Virus record (IMG/VR): IMGVR_UViG_2684623171_000008
Length of the DNA: 35,933 bases
From: a virus
Lineage: Duplodnaviria > Heunggongvirae > Uroviricota > Caudoviricetes
Strand: one strand, 5' to 3'
The notes beneath the pieces were generated by a model. That model was not told the origin of the DNA and made no database searches. It saw only the letters and a program-made list of their open reading frames with translations. Both the position numbers and the translations under genes were made by a program. Positions 23,373 to 32,379 of this stretch are shown in pieces. Numbering within the stretch: position 1 is the stretch's first letter; every line of letters begins with the position of its first letter.

Positions 23373-23825
23373 CGCGCTTCGCTTGTCTGCTGCTTCGCCG
23401 GGGCATAAAAAATTTATGCCCCGACTCTCCAGCTCCTGTATCAGTCAGATAATTTCACGACGCTTTCCTGCTTATTGCCATCATCGACGGTCAGATTCTT
23501 ACGCAATCCCACTGCGCTGACTGCATGTTCTCGCCGCCTCAGTGCGATTTTGACGGCCTTACCTTTCACCCCATCAAACCAGAATCCCTCACGTATTTTT
23601 CACGCTCAGCGTGAGAAATACGGCCATTCTGTCGTGTCGCTGCGACATCGTTAAGGGAACGCTATTTACCCCCCTGAAACGCGGGCTGTTCCCCCGTCAC
23701 TTGCGCGCAGAAAAAACGCGTTTTTTTGTGCACGTACGGATCCTTGACGGATCCAGCCACCACGCGGGCCGGAAGTACAAAAAGTCGTTCAAAAAAATTG
23801 TGCAAACTTGTGCACTATCGTGCAA

Positions 23826-23851
23826 ACAAAAAAAGCGCCTTATCGGCGCTT
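23826..23851 (-). terminator. Rho-independent terminator for the leftward ORF at 23860-24129
   Basis: Hairpin AAGCGCC-TTATC-GGCGCTT followed on the minus strand by a U-run. Confidence 0.5.
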
Positions 23852-23859
23852 CAAAAGTA

Positions 23860-24129
23860 TCAATTGTTGCTGTTTATTAATCGCCAACCACGAACATATG
23901 CTTCATAGGCATCTCTGTGCCTTACAGTTCCAGCCTGGCTAAACGGAATGTTAGCTAAAACTAAATCATTCTGAGCCATAGCGCGTCCTTCAAGCGCATC
24001 TTTTATGCCTAGCTCAAAAGCACAGGCAGCGCATTTGTGCCGACCTTCTTGTCCTTGATATTCAGGGAGAGACAGAAATGTTGGATTATAACGATGAGGG
24101 TTCTTGCAAATACCTGTTTTAGCCCGCAC
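23860..24129 (-). CDS. Hypothetical Cys-containing protein (89 aa) in the old/tin cargo position
   Basis: GTG start; preceded by a long structured leader and followed by a terminator; no recognisable family. Confidence 0.35.
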   Translation of the reverse strand: MRAKTGICKNPHRYNPTFLSLPEYQGQEGRHKCAACAFELGIKDALEGRAMAQNDLVLANIPFSQAGTVRHRDAYEAYVRGWRLINSNN

Positions 24130-24258
24130 TTTATTTACCTCATAGGAAAAATATGCGTGCCTTTACAGAGGTGCGTGTAAGCAATAAAATATACGACGCA
24201 CATTTTGATTTACTTCGGAAGGCACGCATATCAGGTTAAGTGAGTCCGACCGAGTTTT

Positions 24259-24293
24259 ACGCCCCAATAGTTGCTGCTATTGGGGCGTTTTGC
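24259..24293 (+). terminator. Strong hairpin with T-run (plus-strand terminator-like) inside the leader region
   Basis: ACGCCCCAATAG-TTGCTG-CTATTGGGGCGT followed by TTTTG. Confidence 0.45.
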
Positions 24294-24337
24294 ATGGACA
24301 ATGCCGCGCAATTATCTTGTCGCTCACAATGCGAACG

Positions 24338-24365
24338 ATCTTACAAAAAGGCACATTACTGTCAA
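24338..24365 (-). promoter_or_regulatory. Near-consensus sigma70 promoter (TTGACA-N16-TAAGAT, minus strand) overlapping a 13-bp inverted repeat
   Basis: Hexamers read directly; the -35 lies within arm GTCAAGATAATTG, whose partner CAATTATCTTGTC is at 24310-24322. Confidence 0.4.
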
Positions 24366-24493
24366 GATAATTGATCGTTTTAATCGATAGATAATAGACA
24401 ATCTATTTGTTTAACAGATCGATTATTGAAGTAAGTGTGCCAAATGGAATGATACTGTCTCTATAAACGTGAGCATTTTTCGCGCAGATGCTT

Positions 24494-24805
24494 TTACTCA
24501 GGAAATAACGCCCGGATATTCCCAGCCATCTGGCTGGTTATCTTAGCCACTGGTGCAGACTGTGCTTCAAACTTTTTTGAGCTGATTTGTGTCACAGGTA
24601 ACATCTCATCATCAGCCCATGCGGCCAGTCGGTAAGCCTCTGCCGGATTCGTCTTCAGAAGTGCCAGCCCGGCCAGAAAAGCCACGCGTTGGCCGCTTTT
24701 GCGGGCTTCTGGTGTAAGGCTGTCCAGCCAGGCGCATGCTTCTCCTTCGTTCTTGACGGCGGCGGGCTTCAGATAGAAACTTATCCGTCTGGTTGGTGTC
24801 GTCAT
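24494..24805 (-). CDS. ParR/StbB-like partition adaptor protein
   Basis: 103 aa from ATG 24805 (AAGGAG RBS); ISFYLKP...LDSLTPEARKSGQRVAFLAGLAL...LFPE resembles plasmid R1 ParR; directly follows the parM-like gene. Confidence 0.65.
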   Translation of the reverse strand: MTTPTRRISFYLKPAAVKNEGEACAWLDSLTPEARKSGQRVAFLAGLALLKTNPAEAYRLAAWADDEMLPVTQISSKKFEAQSAPVAKITSQMAGNIRALFPE

Positions 24806-24809
24806 TGGT

Positions 24810-25769
24810 TTACTCCTTGTCCATTGCGTACAGCCCATTAACCAGAGCAAACTGTGGCACCCCGTCCGCGATGAAAGTCGCATTAACTCCGCAGGCTTCG
24901 CGGATAGCGGGTGCCACAATCTCCGCCCCGCCACCGACAACCATCACCCGCCCGTAACCCGAAAAAACCGCCAGCGCGCGGATCACGCGTTGTTTCAGTG
25001 TTTCTTCCTTTTCACGAATAACCGCCATCAGGCTGGCGTAATGCGCGTCATTGTGGATGTGCTGGCGCAGCCAGGCTTCATTATGGCGATGTTCGATAAT
25101 GGTATTGGCGATGTGGTGACTGGTGCGCATACCGTTAGTGGCCATCACCGACAGTACGGCATCGGCCATAAGAGAAACGCCTACGTGTGGATCGCAAAAC
25201 ACCTGGCTGATACCTGCCAGTTGCCCCTGAACCTTTGCCACATCCAGCGTGGTTCCGCCCAAATCCACAATCAGCAGGGATTCAAACGGACTCATGTCAG
25301 CCAGTGCTTTAAAGCCAGCCGGAATGGATTCAGGCATAACCCGTACGTTACGGATAGTGAATGCTTCGCCGTTCTGGTACTCCACCGGGCGCATGACGTT
25401 CGCTTTTTTGCGGTTGATGTTGGCCATGTCCGGCTGTGCGTTTGTGTCGAAATATTCGCTCAGTGGCAGGGTAACAACCACATCCACTTCCTGTGGCGTG
25501 ATGTCTGATTTGACCAGCGCGTGATGAATGGCAATGACATTCACATCGCTGTACTGGTATTGCGTGTCGGTCGTCTGGACAAAGCGATCGCTGACCGGAT
25601 CAAAACCATAGCGCACGCCATCAAGCATGTAGTTAGCAGGCTGCGAGCCACCGAACGGCGCAGACCATTCCGACTTGAAGCTGTTCGGGCTGATGGCGTT
25701 GCGGCGTTCGCCGTTCTCAGTCCATGCCAGCTTGATGTTGGTGGAGCCGTCGTCGATGTAAATTTTCAT
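24810..25769 (-). CDS. ParM/StbA-like actin-type segregation ATPase
   Basis: 319 aa; MKIYIDDGSTNIKL, LIVDLGGTTLD and VMVVGGGAEI are actin-fold phosphate and adenosine motifs; extensive resemblance to R1 ParM as recalled from memory. Confidence 0.85.
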   Translation of the reverse strand: MKIYIDDGSTNIKLAWTENGERRNAISPNSFKSEWSAPFGGSQPANYMLDGVRYGFDPVSDRFVQTTDTQYQYSDVNVIAIHHALVKSDITPQEVDVVVTLPLSEYFDTNAQPDMANINRKKANVMRPVEYQNGEAFTIRNVRVMPESIPAGFKALADMSPFESLLIVDLGGTTLDVAKVQGQLAGISQVFCDPHVGVSLMADAVLSVMATNGMRTSHHIANTIIEHRHNEAWLRQHIHNDAHYASLMAVIREKEETLKQRVIRALAVFSGYGRVMVVGGGAEIVAPAIREACGVNATFIADGVPQFALVNGLYAMDKE

Positions 25770-25798
25770 GTCGGTTTTCCTTATGTTGATTAATTAAT

Positions 25799-25912
25799 CG
25801 TTTACGGGATTCTGAAATCCCGTTTTTGCCTGTTTTGTGCGCGCCTCATATATCGCTGCGCGTTTTTTGCTCATTTACGGGATTCGTGAGTCCCGTTTCT
25901 GTCTGTTTTTTG
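25799..25912. repeat. Two ~41-bp direct repeats, each with an 8-bp-stem hairpin, upstream of parM (candidate parC-like centromere/operator)
   Basis: Repeat 1 at 25799-25839 and repeat 2 at 25872-25912 (TTTACGGGATTC..TCCCGTTT..CTGTTTT), 73 bp apart; repeat 2 lies in the last codons of gene A. Confidence 0.45.
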
Positions 25913-28686
25913 TTTCCACTGGTCAGGCCACCCCGCAGCAGGTCTGCTTTGCGGCTGGCGCGTTCAGTGGTTTCACTGATTCTCTGTGCGTGCTCTGCGT
26001 CGCGGATGGCGCGCAGCATGTCAGAAAGCACGGTAACGGGTGTTTTCATGGTGTTCTGGTCCTGCTGAAGTGTGGATGCCAGGCGTGCGGCGGCTTCAGG
26101 GTCTGATGCCCCCAGCTGTGCCAGATAGCTGGCGACCGGGTTATGGCGGATCTCCGTGCTGCTTACGCCATGATTACGGCTCAGACGCTGCCAGAGCTGC
26201 GTGATTCGGCTGTCCGGGCGGGTATCCGGTTTGCGTACAATTTCAAATCCCTGCGGTGCAATGATGCTGCCGTCAACGTACAGACTGCCGCCCCGTAACA
26301 GGTGCTGCATCTGTTGTTCACCGATATGCAGGCCGAGAGATTCAGCAGACTCCCGCCATTCTTTAGCGAGTAACTCGTGGTTATCAGGCAAAGGCCGCTG
26401 CTGTTTGCGGCTCTGTGTCCAGTTCTGCATTTCATCGCTGCTGTTTTTTGCCTGTTTGTCACGAAGCGAACGCATCAGCGCCCGGCGTTCGTGCCGTTTC
26501 AGTGAGCGCATCCATTCATTTACTTCAACGCCGTCAGGAAGCTGCGGCCACGGTGCTGGCCGTTCTTCCGGCTGTTCTGTCCCGTTGTTGCCTGTTTCCT
26601 GTACACGGGGACAGTTATTGCCACGAGTCCAAGGGGCGGCAGGGCCGCCCTGAAGGTCAAAACCATTTTCGCGGGCGCTGTCTTCCGCTTCCGGTTTGCG
26701 TCTTACCAGCTTCCAGTTATCCGGATGCGTGCATACGCGGGAAGACTCCCCAATGAGCGGCGACCAGATCCCGTAAATCTGTACGCTCTGTTCACCGTAA
26801 TCGTTCAGCTCATCTGCGAGGTCGTAGGCGGTGCGAATCAGGTAGTCTTTGCGTGGAACAAGTACGCCACCCTGTTTCTCAATGTAGGTGGCAAAACATC
26901 CGGCATCAGCGGCAGCGAGTACCGCGTCCATTGCGTCATCCTTCAGCCGTTGCGGGCCTTCCGGATTGCGTGCCATCTGGCTGGCAAGGCGGCGCAGTTC
27001 ACGCCACACCTGACGGGAGGGGATGCCAAAGAACTGGAACTGACGGACCCGGTGAAGGCGCGCCCAGCCGATGGCGCGCTCCACGCTCTCGGCCATTGAT
27101 TTACCTGTTTCGTGGTCAACGCGTGGCTTGCCCGTTTTCGGGTCGATGCCATCCACGGCGCGGCTGTCCAGGTTCTTTCCGATGTAGGTGGCGATGTAGC
27201 TGGTTGGCGTGCCTTTTGAGCCGTCGACGTACTCCGCCTTAAAACGCGGAGTTATGTCATCGCCCAGCTCGTGGCGGTCTTCCTGAATGGCAATATCGCA
27301 GACGTGGGACACGATGGTTTCAATCTCGTCCGGATGTGCAAAGACCATCATATGCCAGTGCACAGTGCCGTCATGGTGAGGCTCCACCGTGCGGATGCCA
27401 TACCAGCGCAGGCCGTCGCGGTTCAGTTTTTTGCGGACCGCCGCAAAAAACGTGTTAACCAGGTAATCGCTGGAGTCGCGCATTGTGGCCCCGTTCCATT
27501 TGGGATTCGGATGACCGTTCTCCGTTGTTGCGTGGTATTTTGACGGGCAGGTGACAGTCAGAAACACCGCTCTGTCGCCACGGGCTTCGGCCAGAAGTTC
27601 CAGCCCCTTCATGGTGGCCATCATTTCTGCCTTACGGTGAACCGGGTTACTTACTCCCGCGTAATACACCGTCTCGAGATCAATCGTGAACCCGTCTTCA
27701 TTTTCCAGCATGAAACTTTTCAGGAAATCGCGTGTTTTCTCGCGCTGTGCGCGAAACTCGCTTAACGCGTCCTGGCTCAGATAGGGTGATGTTTTTCTGG
27801 AAACCAGACAGGCGGCGCGGAGTTGTTCTTCCCGCCACTCGCAACGTAACAGCCACAGTTTGCGTTTCCACCATTCCGCACAGGTCAGGCGAAGGATTGC
27901 GCCCGGCAGCAGCTCCGTGTCCGGTTCGTTCCTCCGGTCTTTGTCTGTTGTCAGTGCGTCATAATGTGGAGGCATGGCGTGCAGGTGTAACGCCATGCGG
28001 GCCAGCATCTGATACGCCTTCAGCGTTACATCCATGGTCAGCTCACCATCGGTCGCGCCAAAGCCATCGCAGAGTTTTTCGAAGGTGCTGCTGAACATCG
28101 CCGCCGTCATGGTGGCCAGCGTCTGTATCTGGTGCTTGTTGAGCTGCGGCAGGTAAAGCAAATCATCCAGGCGTTCGCGTCCGGCAAGGGAGCGATAACC
28201 CGGTGTCAGCCAGCGGTGGTCGGTGCGGTCCAGGCGTTCGAATATTTTGCGCAGGGTTCCGCGCGCGTAGCGTTCAGCCTGCCAGCTCTTTTTGCCTTTC
28301 TGGCGATCGGCTTCCTGTTTTTTGCGCAGGAAAGAGAGGTGGCGGCTCAGAGGTTCACGCAGATAAACGGGAAGCACCTTCAGTGTGGCAAAAGCACGGG
28401 CCACCGGGTCTTGTTCTGTTGCCTGACGCTTGCTGATGATGCTTTGTGCCAGCTTTTCACGCTGTCCGGCTTCCTCAAGGGATGCCATGAGTTTTTTACC
28501 CACGGTGGATTGTGCGAAAAAGGCTTCCTCCTTCGCTTCCTGTTCTTCCAGAGCCTTTTTGTCTGCCTCAAGGTAGTAACGGATGGCGCGTTGCAGGTCG
28601 GTTTCAGTTTCCTGCCTGTGCTCCGTAAATCTGGCCGGATCAATGGCTGGCCGTGGTTCATTCCAGCTCCATGCAAACTCATTCAT
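25846..28686 (-). CDS. A: Rolling-circle replication initiator A (P2 gpA-like HUH endonuclease)
   Basis: About 946 aa; HWHMMVF (HUH) motif and downstream Tyr-containing region; ATGA coupling to the upstream ORF. Longer than P2 gpA as recalled from memory. Confidence 0.85.
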   Translation of the reverse strand: MNEFAWSWNEPRPAIDPARFTEHRQETETDLQRAIRYYLEADKKALEEQEAKEEAFFAQSTVGKKLMASLEEAGQREKLAQSIISKRQATEQDPVARAFATLKVLPVYLREPLSRHLSFLRKKQEADRQKGKKSWQAERYARGTLRKIFERLDRTDHRWLTPGYRSLAGRERLDDLLYLPQLNKHQIQTLATMTAAMFSSTFEKLCDGFGATDGELTMDVTLKAYQMLARMALHLHAMPPHYDALTTDKDRRNEPDTELLPGAILRLTCAEWWKRKLWLLRCEWREEQLRAACLVSRKTSPYLSQDALSEFRAQREKTRDFLKSFMLENEDGFTIDLETVYYAGVSNPVHRKAEMMATMKGLELLAEARGDRAVFLTVTCPSKYHATTENGHPNPKWNGATMRDSSDYLVNTFFAAVRKKLNRDGLRWYGIRTVEPHHDGTVHWHMMVFAHPDEIETIVSHVCDIAIQEDRHELGDDITPRFKAEYVDGSKGTPTSYIATYIGKNLDSRAVDGIDPKTGKPRVDHETGKSMAESVERAIGWARLHRVRQFQFFGIPSRQVWRELRRLASQMARNPEGPQRLKDDAMDAVLAAADAGCFATYIEKQGGVLVPRKDYLIRTAYDLADELNDYGEQSVQIYGIWSPLIGESSRVCTHPDNWKLVRRKPEAEDSARENGFDLQGGPAAPWTRGNNCPRVQETGNNGTEQPEERPAPWPQLPDGVEVNEWMRSLKRHERRALMRSLRDKQAKNSSDEMQNWTQSRKQQRPLPDNHELLAKEWRESAESLGLHIGEQQMQHLLRGGSLYVDGSIIAPQGFEIVRKPDTRPDSRITQLWQRLSRNHGVSSTEIRHNPVASYLAQLGASDPEAAARLASTLQQDQNTMKTPVTVLSDMLRAIRDAEHAQRISETTERASRKADLLRGGLTSGNKKQTETGLTNPVNEQKTRSDI

Positions 28687-29072
28687 GGCTGGTATCCCGT
28701 CACGCGCTGCCACTCCTGCGAGAAGAGGGCAGAAAGGCGGTTAAATTCAGCGGTGTATTCACTCAGCGAGGCACACCCGCCAGCAGTGCGATGCGCCAGC
28801 ATTGCCGCAAATACGGAGGCCGGGGAGTCGTAATACGCCAGCAGTGATTCTCCGTGTGGTGTCAGGCAGTGCAACGCCAGCCCGTGTGGTGTGAAGTCCA
28901 CGCGGTAGCAGTCGTCTACTGTGAAATAAAGGGTGTCTGCATTCTCCGGTTTTGTGGTGCGTGCTCTGTTGTCACGACCACGGATGTAGAGATCAAATAA
29001 TCCCTGAAGAACGGGAGCCAGACGGGTGTCCTGTGTGCGCACCCATCTTGTGAAGTCATGAGCGTCAATCAT
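28683..29072 (-). CDS. Hypothetical early-operon protein (129 aa)
   Basis: Translationally coupled to A (ATGA overlap). Confidence 0.45.
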   Translation of the reverse strand: MIDAHDFTRWVRTQDTRLAPVLQGLFDLYIRGRDNRARTTKPENADTLYFTVDDCYRVDFTPHGLALHCLTPHGESLLAYYDSPASVFAAMLAHRTAGGCASLSEYTAEFNRLSALFSQEWQRVTGYQP

Positions 29073-30483: not shown

Positions 30484-30837
30484 CTATGCGTTAAATACGG
30501 CACGTTGCGCGTCATCAATGAATACAGCTTGAGAGCGTTCTATCAGGCGGAGATTTGTCAGAAGCTCTGACTCTTTTGTGTGGTAAGGCGTTATCAGGTA
30601 TTTGCCGTGCAGTTCGGCAATAATGGTGTATTGCGTCATTATTGCCGAACCAAGAATGTAAATGCGGCGTCCAATGCTGGACGGATTCATGGCTGCAACT
30701 GTTGACTGTGTTTTAAGAGTATCGATTTCTTTGCCCTGTTCCTCAATAATTTTGGCTGCGTCAGCGGTGATTTTTGCAATGGTCAGTGCGTGAAGTGCTG
30801 CCATATGTTGGCTACGCTTCACGGCATCTTTAGCCAT
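30484..30837 (-). CDS. Hypothetical early-operon protein (117 aa)
   Basis: First gene after the AT-rich intergenic region containing a T9 tract. Confidence 0.45.
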   Translation of the reverse strand: MAKDAVKRSQHMAALHALTIAKITADAAKIIEEQGKEIDTLKTQSTVAAMNPSSIGRRIYILGSAIMTQYTIIAELHGKYLITPYHTKESELLTNLRLIERSQAVFIDDAQRAVFNA

Positions 30838-32325: not shown

Positions 32326-32379
32326 GGTGTACTTATAAGTACACCTTGTGCGCAAGCTTAGTGTACTTATAGGAACACT
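32326..32379. promoter_or_regulatory. Immunity-switch operator pair: 20-bp perfect palindrome GGTGTACTTATAAGTACACC and related repeat AGTGTACTTATAGGAACACT
   Basis: Two related sites 34 bp apart (centre to centre) between cox and C. Confidence 0.5.

Follow-up and report, generated by a model that had tools for sequence, protein, structure and literature searches.

The window analysed here, a 35.9-kb stretch of viral DNA (IMG/VR virus record IMGVR_UViG_2684623171_000008), is as a whole a P2-like phage genome (Peduoviridae, Xuanwuvirus), and beside its partition genes, on the minus strand, lies a small open reading frame (ORF) of 89 amino acids (aa) preceded by a long leader. We find this region, to which Escherichia phage 520873 is 98.9% identical, to be a mobile and self-contained cassette of five parts: a promoter with Dam (GATC) sites, a folded leader, an internal convergent promoter with a predicted cis-antisense RNA, the gene of a predicted zinc-binding protein whose family is found with restriction-modification (R-M) systems, and a terminator. 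The original prediction for this locus had been of an operator-overlapped promoter and a leader acting either as an attenuator or as part of a small RNA (sRNA) and target pair; the cassette is more organised than that, and ties a known kind of antisense regulation to an uncharacterised protein family. An autonomous, antisense-gated cassette is our best overall explanation of these features and, we think, a probable one. The parts are as follows.

24338..24365, minus strand: sense promoter, TTGACA-N16-TAAGAT, 10/12 consensus positions, predicted start at about 24331
24130..24331, minus strand: structured 5' mRNA leader, about 202 nt, its start taken about 7 nt after the -10
24162-24190, plus strand: antisense promoter, TTTACA-N17-TAAAAT, 10/12 consensus, inside the leader
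24197..24294, plus strand: predicted cis-antisense RNA, about 97 nt, deduced from promoter and terminator, complementary to about +38 to +135 of the leader
24259-24270 / 24277-24288, plus strand: arms of hairpin SL2, 12 bp perfect, GC-rich, plus-strand tail GTTTTG
24219..24231, minus strand: 5' arm of helix SL3, ATATGCGTGCCTT, inside the antisense target
24151..24163, minus strand: 3' arm of SL3, AAGGCACGCATAT, the "middle segment", abutting the complement of the antisense -35
24127..24141, minus strand: Shine-Dalgarno (SD) sequence GAGG (24141-24138) and GTG start (24129-24127), with a small local CCU/AGG hairpin of 3 bp
23860..24129, minus strand: 89-aa ORF with GTG start, phrog_3941, predicted zinc-binding
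23825..23852, minus strand: intrinsic terminator of the ORF, GAAGCGCC-GATAA-GGCGCTTT then TTTTGTTT, the hairpin at 23852-23832 and a T run after it
24309-24319 / 24363-24373: inverted repeat flanking the sense promoter, CAATTATCTTG / CAAGATAATTG, 11 bp perfect, arms 43 nt apart
24375..24445, minus strand: conserved block upstream of the sense promoter

The plus-strand promoter had no place in the original prediction; it emerged from the same scan as the sense promoter, which lies as predicted at 24365 to 24338, and it points at the 12-bp hairpin. Comparison of 60 distinct gammaproteobacterial leaders, taken from phage and prophage elements of Enterobacterales, Morganellaceae and Orbaceae, revealed the pattern TTTAC[AT]-N17(18)-[TC]AnnnT at 28-41 nt upstream of the start codon in every one of them (60/60); in 52 leaders of other phyla it is absent throughout. 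TGTAAAG, which is complementary to the antisense -35, is invariant in alignments that are otherwise diverged; the -10 keeps T1, A2 and T6 and varies only at positions 3-5 (TAAAAT, TAGACT, TAATCT, TACTCT, TAGAAT, TACGAT, CACAAT and others), and so behaves like a promoter and unlike a paired RNA. The RNA predicted to start here folds at -35.6 kcal/mol (z = -4.1). An Rfam search of the window gave no family at threshold, only two sub-threshold hairpin matches on the plus strand, to ctRNA_pGA1 (RF00236; 22.1 bits against a gathering score of 45) and to sar (RF00262; 22.0 against 43), and the homologous leaders of 14 other loci matched no Rfam family; the antisense RNA appears to be conserved and previously undescribed.

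Hairpin SL2 we read as the intrinsic terminator of this predicted RNA. The stem proposed at 24259-24288 is present and perfect, with an energy of -20.6 kcal/mol. As plain MAFFT alignments of the leaders misaligned it, we used a covariance model, removing reverse-strand and spurious rows by script, to collect 25 distinct homologous hairpins on the gene strand; 94.7% of their pair cells are canonical, compared with 68.8% in column shuffles, of which none in 1000 reached the observed value, and compensatory (double) changes occur at 8 of the 11 pairs. These figures are optimistic, because the alignment was fitted by the covariance model and the sequences are related. The tail of the hairpin has a clear polarity: in the 10 nt that follow it, 26 representative leaders average 5.3 T on the antisense strand versus 1.4 T on the sense strand, where the 3' flank is A-rich and none of the 26 shows a U tail. 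The hairpin is therefore no sense-strand terminator, and its reading as an attenuator is not supported. A subgroup of chromosomal copies from Enterobacter, Citrobacter, Klebsiella and Serratia, subgroup B, has on the antisense side a textbook terminator, a canonical stem followed by TTTTTTT, with runs of 6-8 T. Taken together, the sequence features are better explained by a convergent sense/antisense pair than by an operator combined with an attenuator; of the alternatives first offered, the sRNA and target pair is the one favoured, with the predicted sRNA encoded in cis on the opposite strand of the leader by a convergent promoter and a terminator hairpin.

The SL2 loop occurs in both orientations among near-identical relatives (L132 versus L136; L008 versus L011 and L147), implying inversion of the loop between the stem arms at the DNA level. 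Such inversion would be harmless to a cis-antisense pair because both loops remain complementary.

Structure prediction, one of the checks that had been suggested, gives a structured leader for the gene-strand RNA as well: it folds at -71.4 kcal/mol (z = -3.6 against dinucleotide shuffles), and the leaders of relatives, of about 172-175 nt, carry the same elements in the same order. Inverted repeats with an 11-nt perfect seed within 80 nt number 15 in the whole window, and three of them lie in the 225 nt from 24151 to 24373, a clustering that exceeds chance. The second 13-bp inverted repeat of the original prediction, ATATGCGTGCCTT / AAGGCACGCATAT, is real and perfect, its coordinates having been off by 1-2 nt (24151-24163 / 24219-24231 by our tool). 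It forms the long SL3 helix, which RNAalifold recovers with 2 compensatory pairs in the outer stem, and within which the antisense promoter falls, both in the window and in relatives. In the window, the duplex of the SL3 5' arm with the 3' arm region has an energy of -22.8 kcal/mol (z = -5.6) and that of the middle segment with the SD/start region -15.3 kcal/mol (z = -2.1); such dual complementarity of the middle segment, to the 5' arm and to the ribosome binding site (RBS) with z < -2 for each against shuffled controls, is found in 20 of the 26 representatives. Most relatives have stronger hairpins burying the SD and AUG, built from differing sequences, and in a P22-like subgroup the sequence around the start codon (…AGAAUG…) recurs in the upstream SL3 arm. 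The leader of the window has two short ORFs, of 12 and 22 codons, but both are missing in L004 and L014, and we rejected the idea of a conserved leader peptide.

We can picture the working of the cassette as follows. The near-consensus sigma-70 promoter, lying between Dam sites, would produce an mRNA consisting of the folded leader of about 200 nt, the 89-aa ORF and the terminator; the convergent promoter inside the leader would produce the cis-antisense RNA of about 97 nt, which would end at the 24259-24288 hairpin and be complementary, over its full length, to the middle of the leader. That this RNA is made and represses the ORF seems to us rather likely. Its most likely action would have two parts. 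Pairing of the antisense RNA with the leader would yield a duplex open to double-strand-specific cleavage and decay; and the antisense RNA, by occupying the 5' arm of SL3, would free the 3' arm to pair with the SD/start region and so close the RBS. The second, a three-part switch, is possible, though as a specific mechanism we regard it as doubtful; duplex-triggered decay is at least as likely, and both may operate. As a net result, only a burst of protein, or a low set level of it, would be produced, for instance just after replication or entry of the promoter DNA, while antisense RNA has yet to accumulate.

The sense promoter has counterparts, TTGAnn-N16-18-TAnnAT, in most of the 26 representative relatives, the pattern failing or being doubtful in a few (L158, L142 and L035, for example). 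The inverted repeat around it, which had been taken for a 13-bp perfect operator, is perfect over only 11 bp, the next position being mismatched to give 12/13; its arms cover the -35 and about +13 to +23, and a single one of them is transcribed. L122, L124 and L125, the closest of the diverged relatives, retain the promoter hexamers and, almost unaltered, some 70 nt upstream of them; they lack the repeat, which is therefore lineage-specific or fortuitous. What these relatives do share is the upstream block, about 95% conserved even as leader and protein have diverged (the protein to about 63% identity); it contains a near-palindrome, ATCTGTTAAACAAAT, the motif ATAGAT-N8-ATCTAT, and GATC at 24417-24420 and 24373-24376, and is a candidate regulator-binding or UP region. 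In the window the last letters of the -10 form part of a further GATC, at 24337-24340 (TAAGATC). Across the family such sites keep fixed positions: of the 25 relatives whose promoter was recognised, 19, all of the main group, have one at 9-11 nt upstream of the -35; a second overlaps or follows the -10, and the SL3 loop and the spacer of the antisense promoter contain others. Altogether the promoters and leaders of the 26 representatives have 79 GATC where 20.8 are expected, the highest count in 200 shuffles being 33. Control of the promoter by Dam methylation or by a GATC-reading protein may reasonably be inferred.

The ORF is a real gene. It begins with GTG as predicted, ends at the predicted terminator, a canonical one, and with its own promoter and structured leader can be predicted to form its own transcription unit under post-transcriptional control. 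Its product has a metal-site motif, C8-x3-H12...C33-x2-C36, and two QxGxxRH[KR]-helix repeats; C8, H12, R30, G41, Q65, R70 and H71 are invariant and Q25, H31, C33 and C36 nearly so. A word-indexed protein search gave near-identical E. coli proteins only, and it took an exhaustive HMMER search to reveal a family of 173 relatives at the 50% cluster level. The structure model (pLDDT 90) is of a soluble, helical, predicted zinc-binding fold, and the protein is hydrophilic, with no long hydrophobic or membrane-spanning stretch. In PHROGs it matches only the unknown-function family phrog_3941; Pfam, including its helix-turn-helix (HTH) models, NCBIfam and PADLOC gave none, and neither PDB nor BFVD holds a match to the model. 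The domain is also found fused to HNH and NOV_C (PD-(D/E)xK) nucleases, to DndB-like proteins and to a WYL protein.

The relatives in other phyla offer a clue to what the protein does. Outside Enterobacterales the nearest neighbour of the small gene is a Dam-class methylase, a DpnA-class methylase or a DpnII endonuclease at 38 of 62 loci; by Pfam, the 63 nearest-neighbour ORFs submitted from the 62 loci include 16 D12-class (Dam) adenine methylases, 15 DpnII, 14 N6_N4 methylases and one C5 methylase. The operon order Dam - small gene - DpnII recurs at no fewer than 12 loci (at least 12), with gaps of 2-48 nt, and here the small gene has no long leader. Because the genes sit between methylase and endonuclease of DpnII-type operons, the family most likely serves GATC-specific R-M systems as an accessory component that probably binds DNA, and the copies in phages are orphan versions; candidate roles for these are regulator, methylation-state reader, anti-restriction or exclusion factor, and toxin. 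A review of R-M regulation names only HTH controllers, methylase-fused repressors and antisense RNAs (PMC12707154). The small gene in other phyla has the position of a controller (C) gene, just upstream of and co-oriented with the endonuclease gene, and its product has the size of a C protein; its fusion to nucleases parallels the C-R fusions, and the predicted antisense RNA of the cassette parallels the reverse promoters and antisense RNAs used by R-M units such as EcoRI and Eco29kI (PMC12707154). Known C proteins, by contrast, are HTH proteins of the Xre type, whereas the small-protein family has no HTH or Pfam match, and in the window it has neither the C-gene placement nor an R-M system beside it. 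One could go further and suppose that the 89-aa protein founds a new class of non-HTH, zinc-binding readers of GATC or its methylation state that time the endonuclease in DpnII-type operons, and that temperate phages of Dam-positive enterobacteria have captured it as a stand-alone sensor or anti-restriction/exclusion factor, equipped with a Dam-sensitive promoter, a new antisense RNA and a three-part decoy switch in which an upstream copy of the start-codon region would compete with the real one for the anti-SD segment; this fuller proposal we think unlikely.

Two forms of Dam-class methylase stand beside the small gene at Firmicutes-type loci (L034, L036, L048, L060, L073, L080, L084), one of 356 aa that is extended at its N-terminus by an HTH-like part, and one of 295 aa that lacks this part.

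The surroundings of the cassette in the window are the following.

25846-28713, minus strand: gpA replication gene
24810-25769, minus strand: parM
ends at 24494, minus strand: parR

After parR come the cassette, a cos-proximal gap, and the portal and terminase genes on the plus strand, an order which in a P2-like genome places the cassette within the gpA-gpQ interval. This interval is a known variable hotspot of P2-like phages (P2 old/tin), in which roughly one in four of these phages has a putative partition system (PMC9122126). The neighbour here is a ParMRC type II cassette with tandem ParM and ParR (Pfam StbA_N, E = 1e-80; ParM_N, 3e-68; Plasmid_stab_B, E = 2e-23). The small-gene cassette had been linked to it, and indeed other P2-like phages (L121-L125) have the same parM-parR-small gene-portal order; protein-level searches also place the ORF, at 40-60% identity, in mobile elements of other kinds. 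In lambdoid phages of Providencia and Arsenophonus (L004, L006) the small gene occupies, on the opposite strand, the space that separates the Q antiterminator from the lysis genes, and in a P22-like Salmonella phage (L005) it lies directly downstream of cI, the slot that in BTP1 holds bstA (PMC8585504). One architecture thus occupies three unrelated phage slots, and as the lambdoid and P22-like phages have the module without parMR, adjacency to par is no functional requirement. Scanning species-representative genomes and IMG/VR, we found 160 further loci. At the DNA level, 571 bp of the region recur at ≥99% identity in 166 of 5426 complete E. coli genomes, a patchy and mobile distribution; the 172 E. 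coli copies are all chromosomal, none being on a plasmid, and are annotated "hypothetical protein" or not at all, and a plasmid DNA search gave no high-identity match. The cassette shares the P2-like and P22-like positions of prophage accessory and defence genes and, like them, is a separately terminated unit, although it has no PADLOC model match and an anti-phage role is only a candidate. In our reading the region forms a cassette of its own for an accessory gene (a "moron"), placed in the gpA-gpQ hotspot of a P2-like prophage, and is no appendage of the partition genes.

Several observations concern the neighbouring DNA. Between the window and the second P2-like group (L121-L125), ParM is 95-99% identical, ParR 48-55% and the small protein about 63%, placing a mosaic break inside the partition cassette (24494-25769). 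Upstream of parM, a stretch (25788-25885) that reaches into the 3' end of gpA contains AACGGGA-N7-ATCCCGTAAA twice and a palindrome, GATTAATTAATC; these candidate parC/ParR sites bear no relation to the block that precedes the small gene, and a ParR operator common to both places was rejected, AACGGGA-N7-ATCCCGT not being found upstream of the small gene. The gpA ORF has 955 aa, of which only residues 194-518 are covered by the Phage_GPA domain, its long C-terminal part having no assigned domain. Downstream of the ORF terminator, the cos-proximal gap (23592-23830) contains three direct repeats of GTGCAAAC-like units (23797-23827) and palindromes at 23592-23622 and 23711-23726. The strongest other inverted repeats of the window, at 32326-32378 and 30612-30650 (18 nt at 89% complementarity; 14 nt perfect), are possible operators or terminators elsewhere in the phage. 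Salmonella phage BIS08P22 has an annotated "hypothetical protein" (L005, 2665-2901) that separates cI from the small gene; it runs over the module's conserved promoter and leader, and is probably no real gene. In the Arsenophonus plasmid-prophage (L006, 5145-5328) there are adjacent matches, at Rfam threshold, to isrK and C4 antisense RNA. Position 1 of GenBank NC_049343 (Escherichia phage 500465-2) falls within the 89-aa ORF (window about 23956); the record appears to have been opened at an arbitrary point, not at an end of the genome.

Comparison with known antisense systems helps to place the cassette. IS10 is controlled by the RNA-IN/RNA-OUT antisense pair, in which RNA-OUT covers the start codon and RBS directly, and by Dam at pIN. 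The cassette resembles it in its close convergent promoters, in a small stable stem-loop RNA predicted to be antisense to the 5' portion of the mRNA, and in a sense promoter overlapped by a GATC, so that expression would likewise track DNA replication or entry and be damped by accumulated antisense RNA; it differs in that antisense complementarity stops some 65 nt short of the start codon, and that Dam dependence is here putative. Antisense RNAs directed at the leader upstream of the RBS, and acting indirectly through refolding as we propose, are the counter-transcribed RNAs (ctRNAs) of R1 (CopA/CopT), IncI-alpha (Inc RNA) and pT181/pIP501, and sar of P22. Their targets are replication initiators or an antirepressor, whereas the gene regulated here is neither, and as the Rfam scores for ctRNA_pGA1 and sar stay below gathering and concern the terminator hairpin only, the cassette RNA is no member of these families. 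The same layout as predicted here, a cis-encoded antisense RNA against a highly structured mRNA on a prophage or plasmid, is that of the type I systems hok/sok and bsrG/SR4. On bsrG of the B. subtilis SPbeta prophage, SR4 acts both by mRNA decay and by a refolding that tightens sequestration of a distant RBS (PMC3834814), the dual action proposed for the cassette, though SR4 overlaps the 3' end of its mRNA and the predicted antisense RNA here the 5' leader. In its predicted working, then, the cassette is like a type I system or an IS10-type antisense gate, yet it lacks the small hydrophobic toxin of the one and falls short of the Rfam thresholds.

A number of points weigh against an antisense-gated cassette of the kind proposed. 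Both the sense and the antisense RNA are predictions from sequence, and repression and its mode are read from the same elements. The plus-strand tail of SL2 in the window has only 4 T, and the terminator scan made no call there. The antisense RNA stays clear of SD and start codon, so that any effect on translation must be indirect; in the window the pairing of middle segment and RBS is weak (z = -2.1), the local SD hairpin has just 3 bp and the predicted RBS accessibility is 0.72. The thermodynamic test of refolding gave weak support: with the antisense target masked, the mean unpaired probability of the RBS went from 0.45 to 0.35, a modest effect, falling in 15 of the 26 representatives, rising in 6 and unchanged in 5. 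Subgroup B has neither the dual complementarity of the middle segment nor the GATC enrichment, sites being missing. As to the protein, its role is drawn through guilt by association, and the neighbouring Dam methylases often carry their own HTH-like extension, so that a separate controller may be unneeded.

Three other accounts of the locus can be set against the antisense-gated cassette. One is a type I toxin-antitoxin system, the 89-aa protein being toxic and the unstable antisense RNA its antitoxin, so that the cassette would complement parMR by post-segregational killing, just as on plasmid R1 hok/sok shares the replicon with parMRC and complements it. Complementarity of antisense RNA and mRNA, which marks type I systems, is predicted here, together with a long leader whose 5' end is paired in the fold and, strongly in most relatives but over just 3 bp in the window, with hairpins over the SD, and the cassette is patchily distributed on prophages and plasmids and in the window adjoins partition genes. 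Yet type I toxins are small (usually <60 aa) hydrophobic membrane-active peptides or shown growth inhibitors, and not, as here, a soluble, widely conserved, folded domain of 89 aa predicted to bind zinc; no toxin model of PADLOC or NCBIfam matches it, its E. coli copies are without exception chromosomal, and its encoding in other phyla without a long leader, 2-48 nt from methylase and endonuclease genes, is hard to square with intrinsic toxicity. We hold this account to be unlikely, and less credible still is that of a repressor at the promoter inverted repeat, with the sense-strand hairpins as an attenuator or riboswitch-like element, the model of the original prediction. A perfect 11-bp repeat does bracket the promoter, a highly conserved, palindrome-bearing block lies just upstream of the -35, and GATC sites flank the promoter in most relatives; some control of the promoter by a protein or by methylation is therefore likely in addition to the RNA layer. 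But the repeat is not kept where the promoter is, its arms are far apart with one of them transcribed, the hairpin has no sense U tail in any representative, Rfam has no riboswitch or leader family to match, and no leader peptide is conserved; we rate this model as very unlikely.

The remaining account is that the elements are unrelated, the hairpin being an insulator or terminator between par and the ORF, the plus-strand promoter a chance match and the long repeat an mRNA-stabilising structure. In its favour, promoter-like sites are no commoner in the region than in shuffled sequence (2 versus a mean of 2.2), and the antisense terminator of the window is weak by the criteria of the scan. Against it, the antisense promoter retains position, spacing, A2 and T6 in 60 of 60 diverged leaders, the polarity of the tail is consistent across relatives, and the hairpin lies downstream of the sense promoter, not between operons; we find this account scarcely credible.

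The antisense-gated cassette consists of components neither of which is catalogued, the RNA having no Rfam family and the protein no Pfam, NCBIfam or PADLOC model and no structural relative. It is nevertheless carried by about 3% of complete E. coli genomes and by phages of at least 12 enterobacterial and Orbaceae genera, always in the defence or conversion slots of temperate phages. Should the antisense RNA prove real, the short list of cis-antisense switches known for prophages of Gram-negative bacteria would gain one that is well conserved and easy to test. If the link with GATC R-M systems is functional, the protein could explain the control of DpnII-type systems, which have no known controller, and could show what phages gain from a lone copy of the gene.

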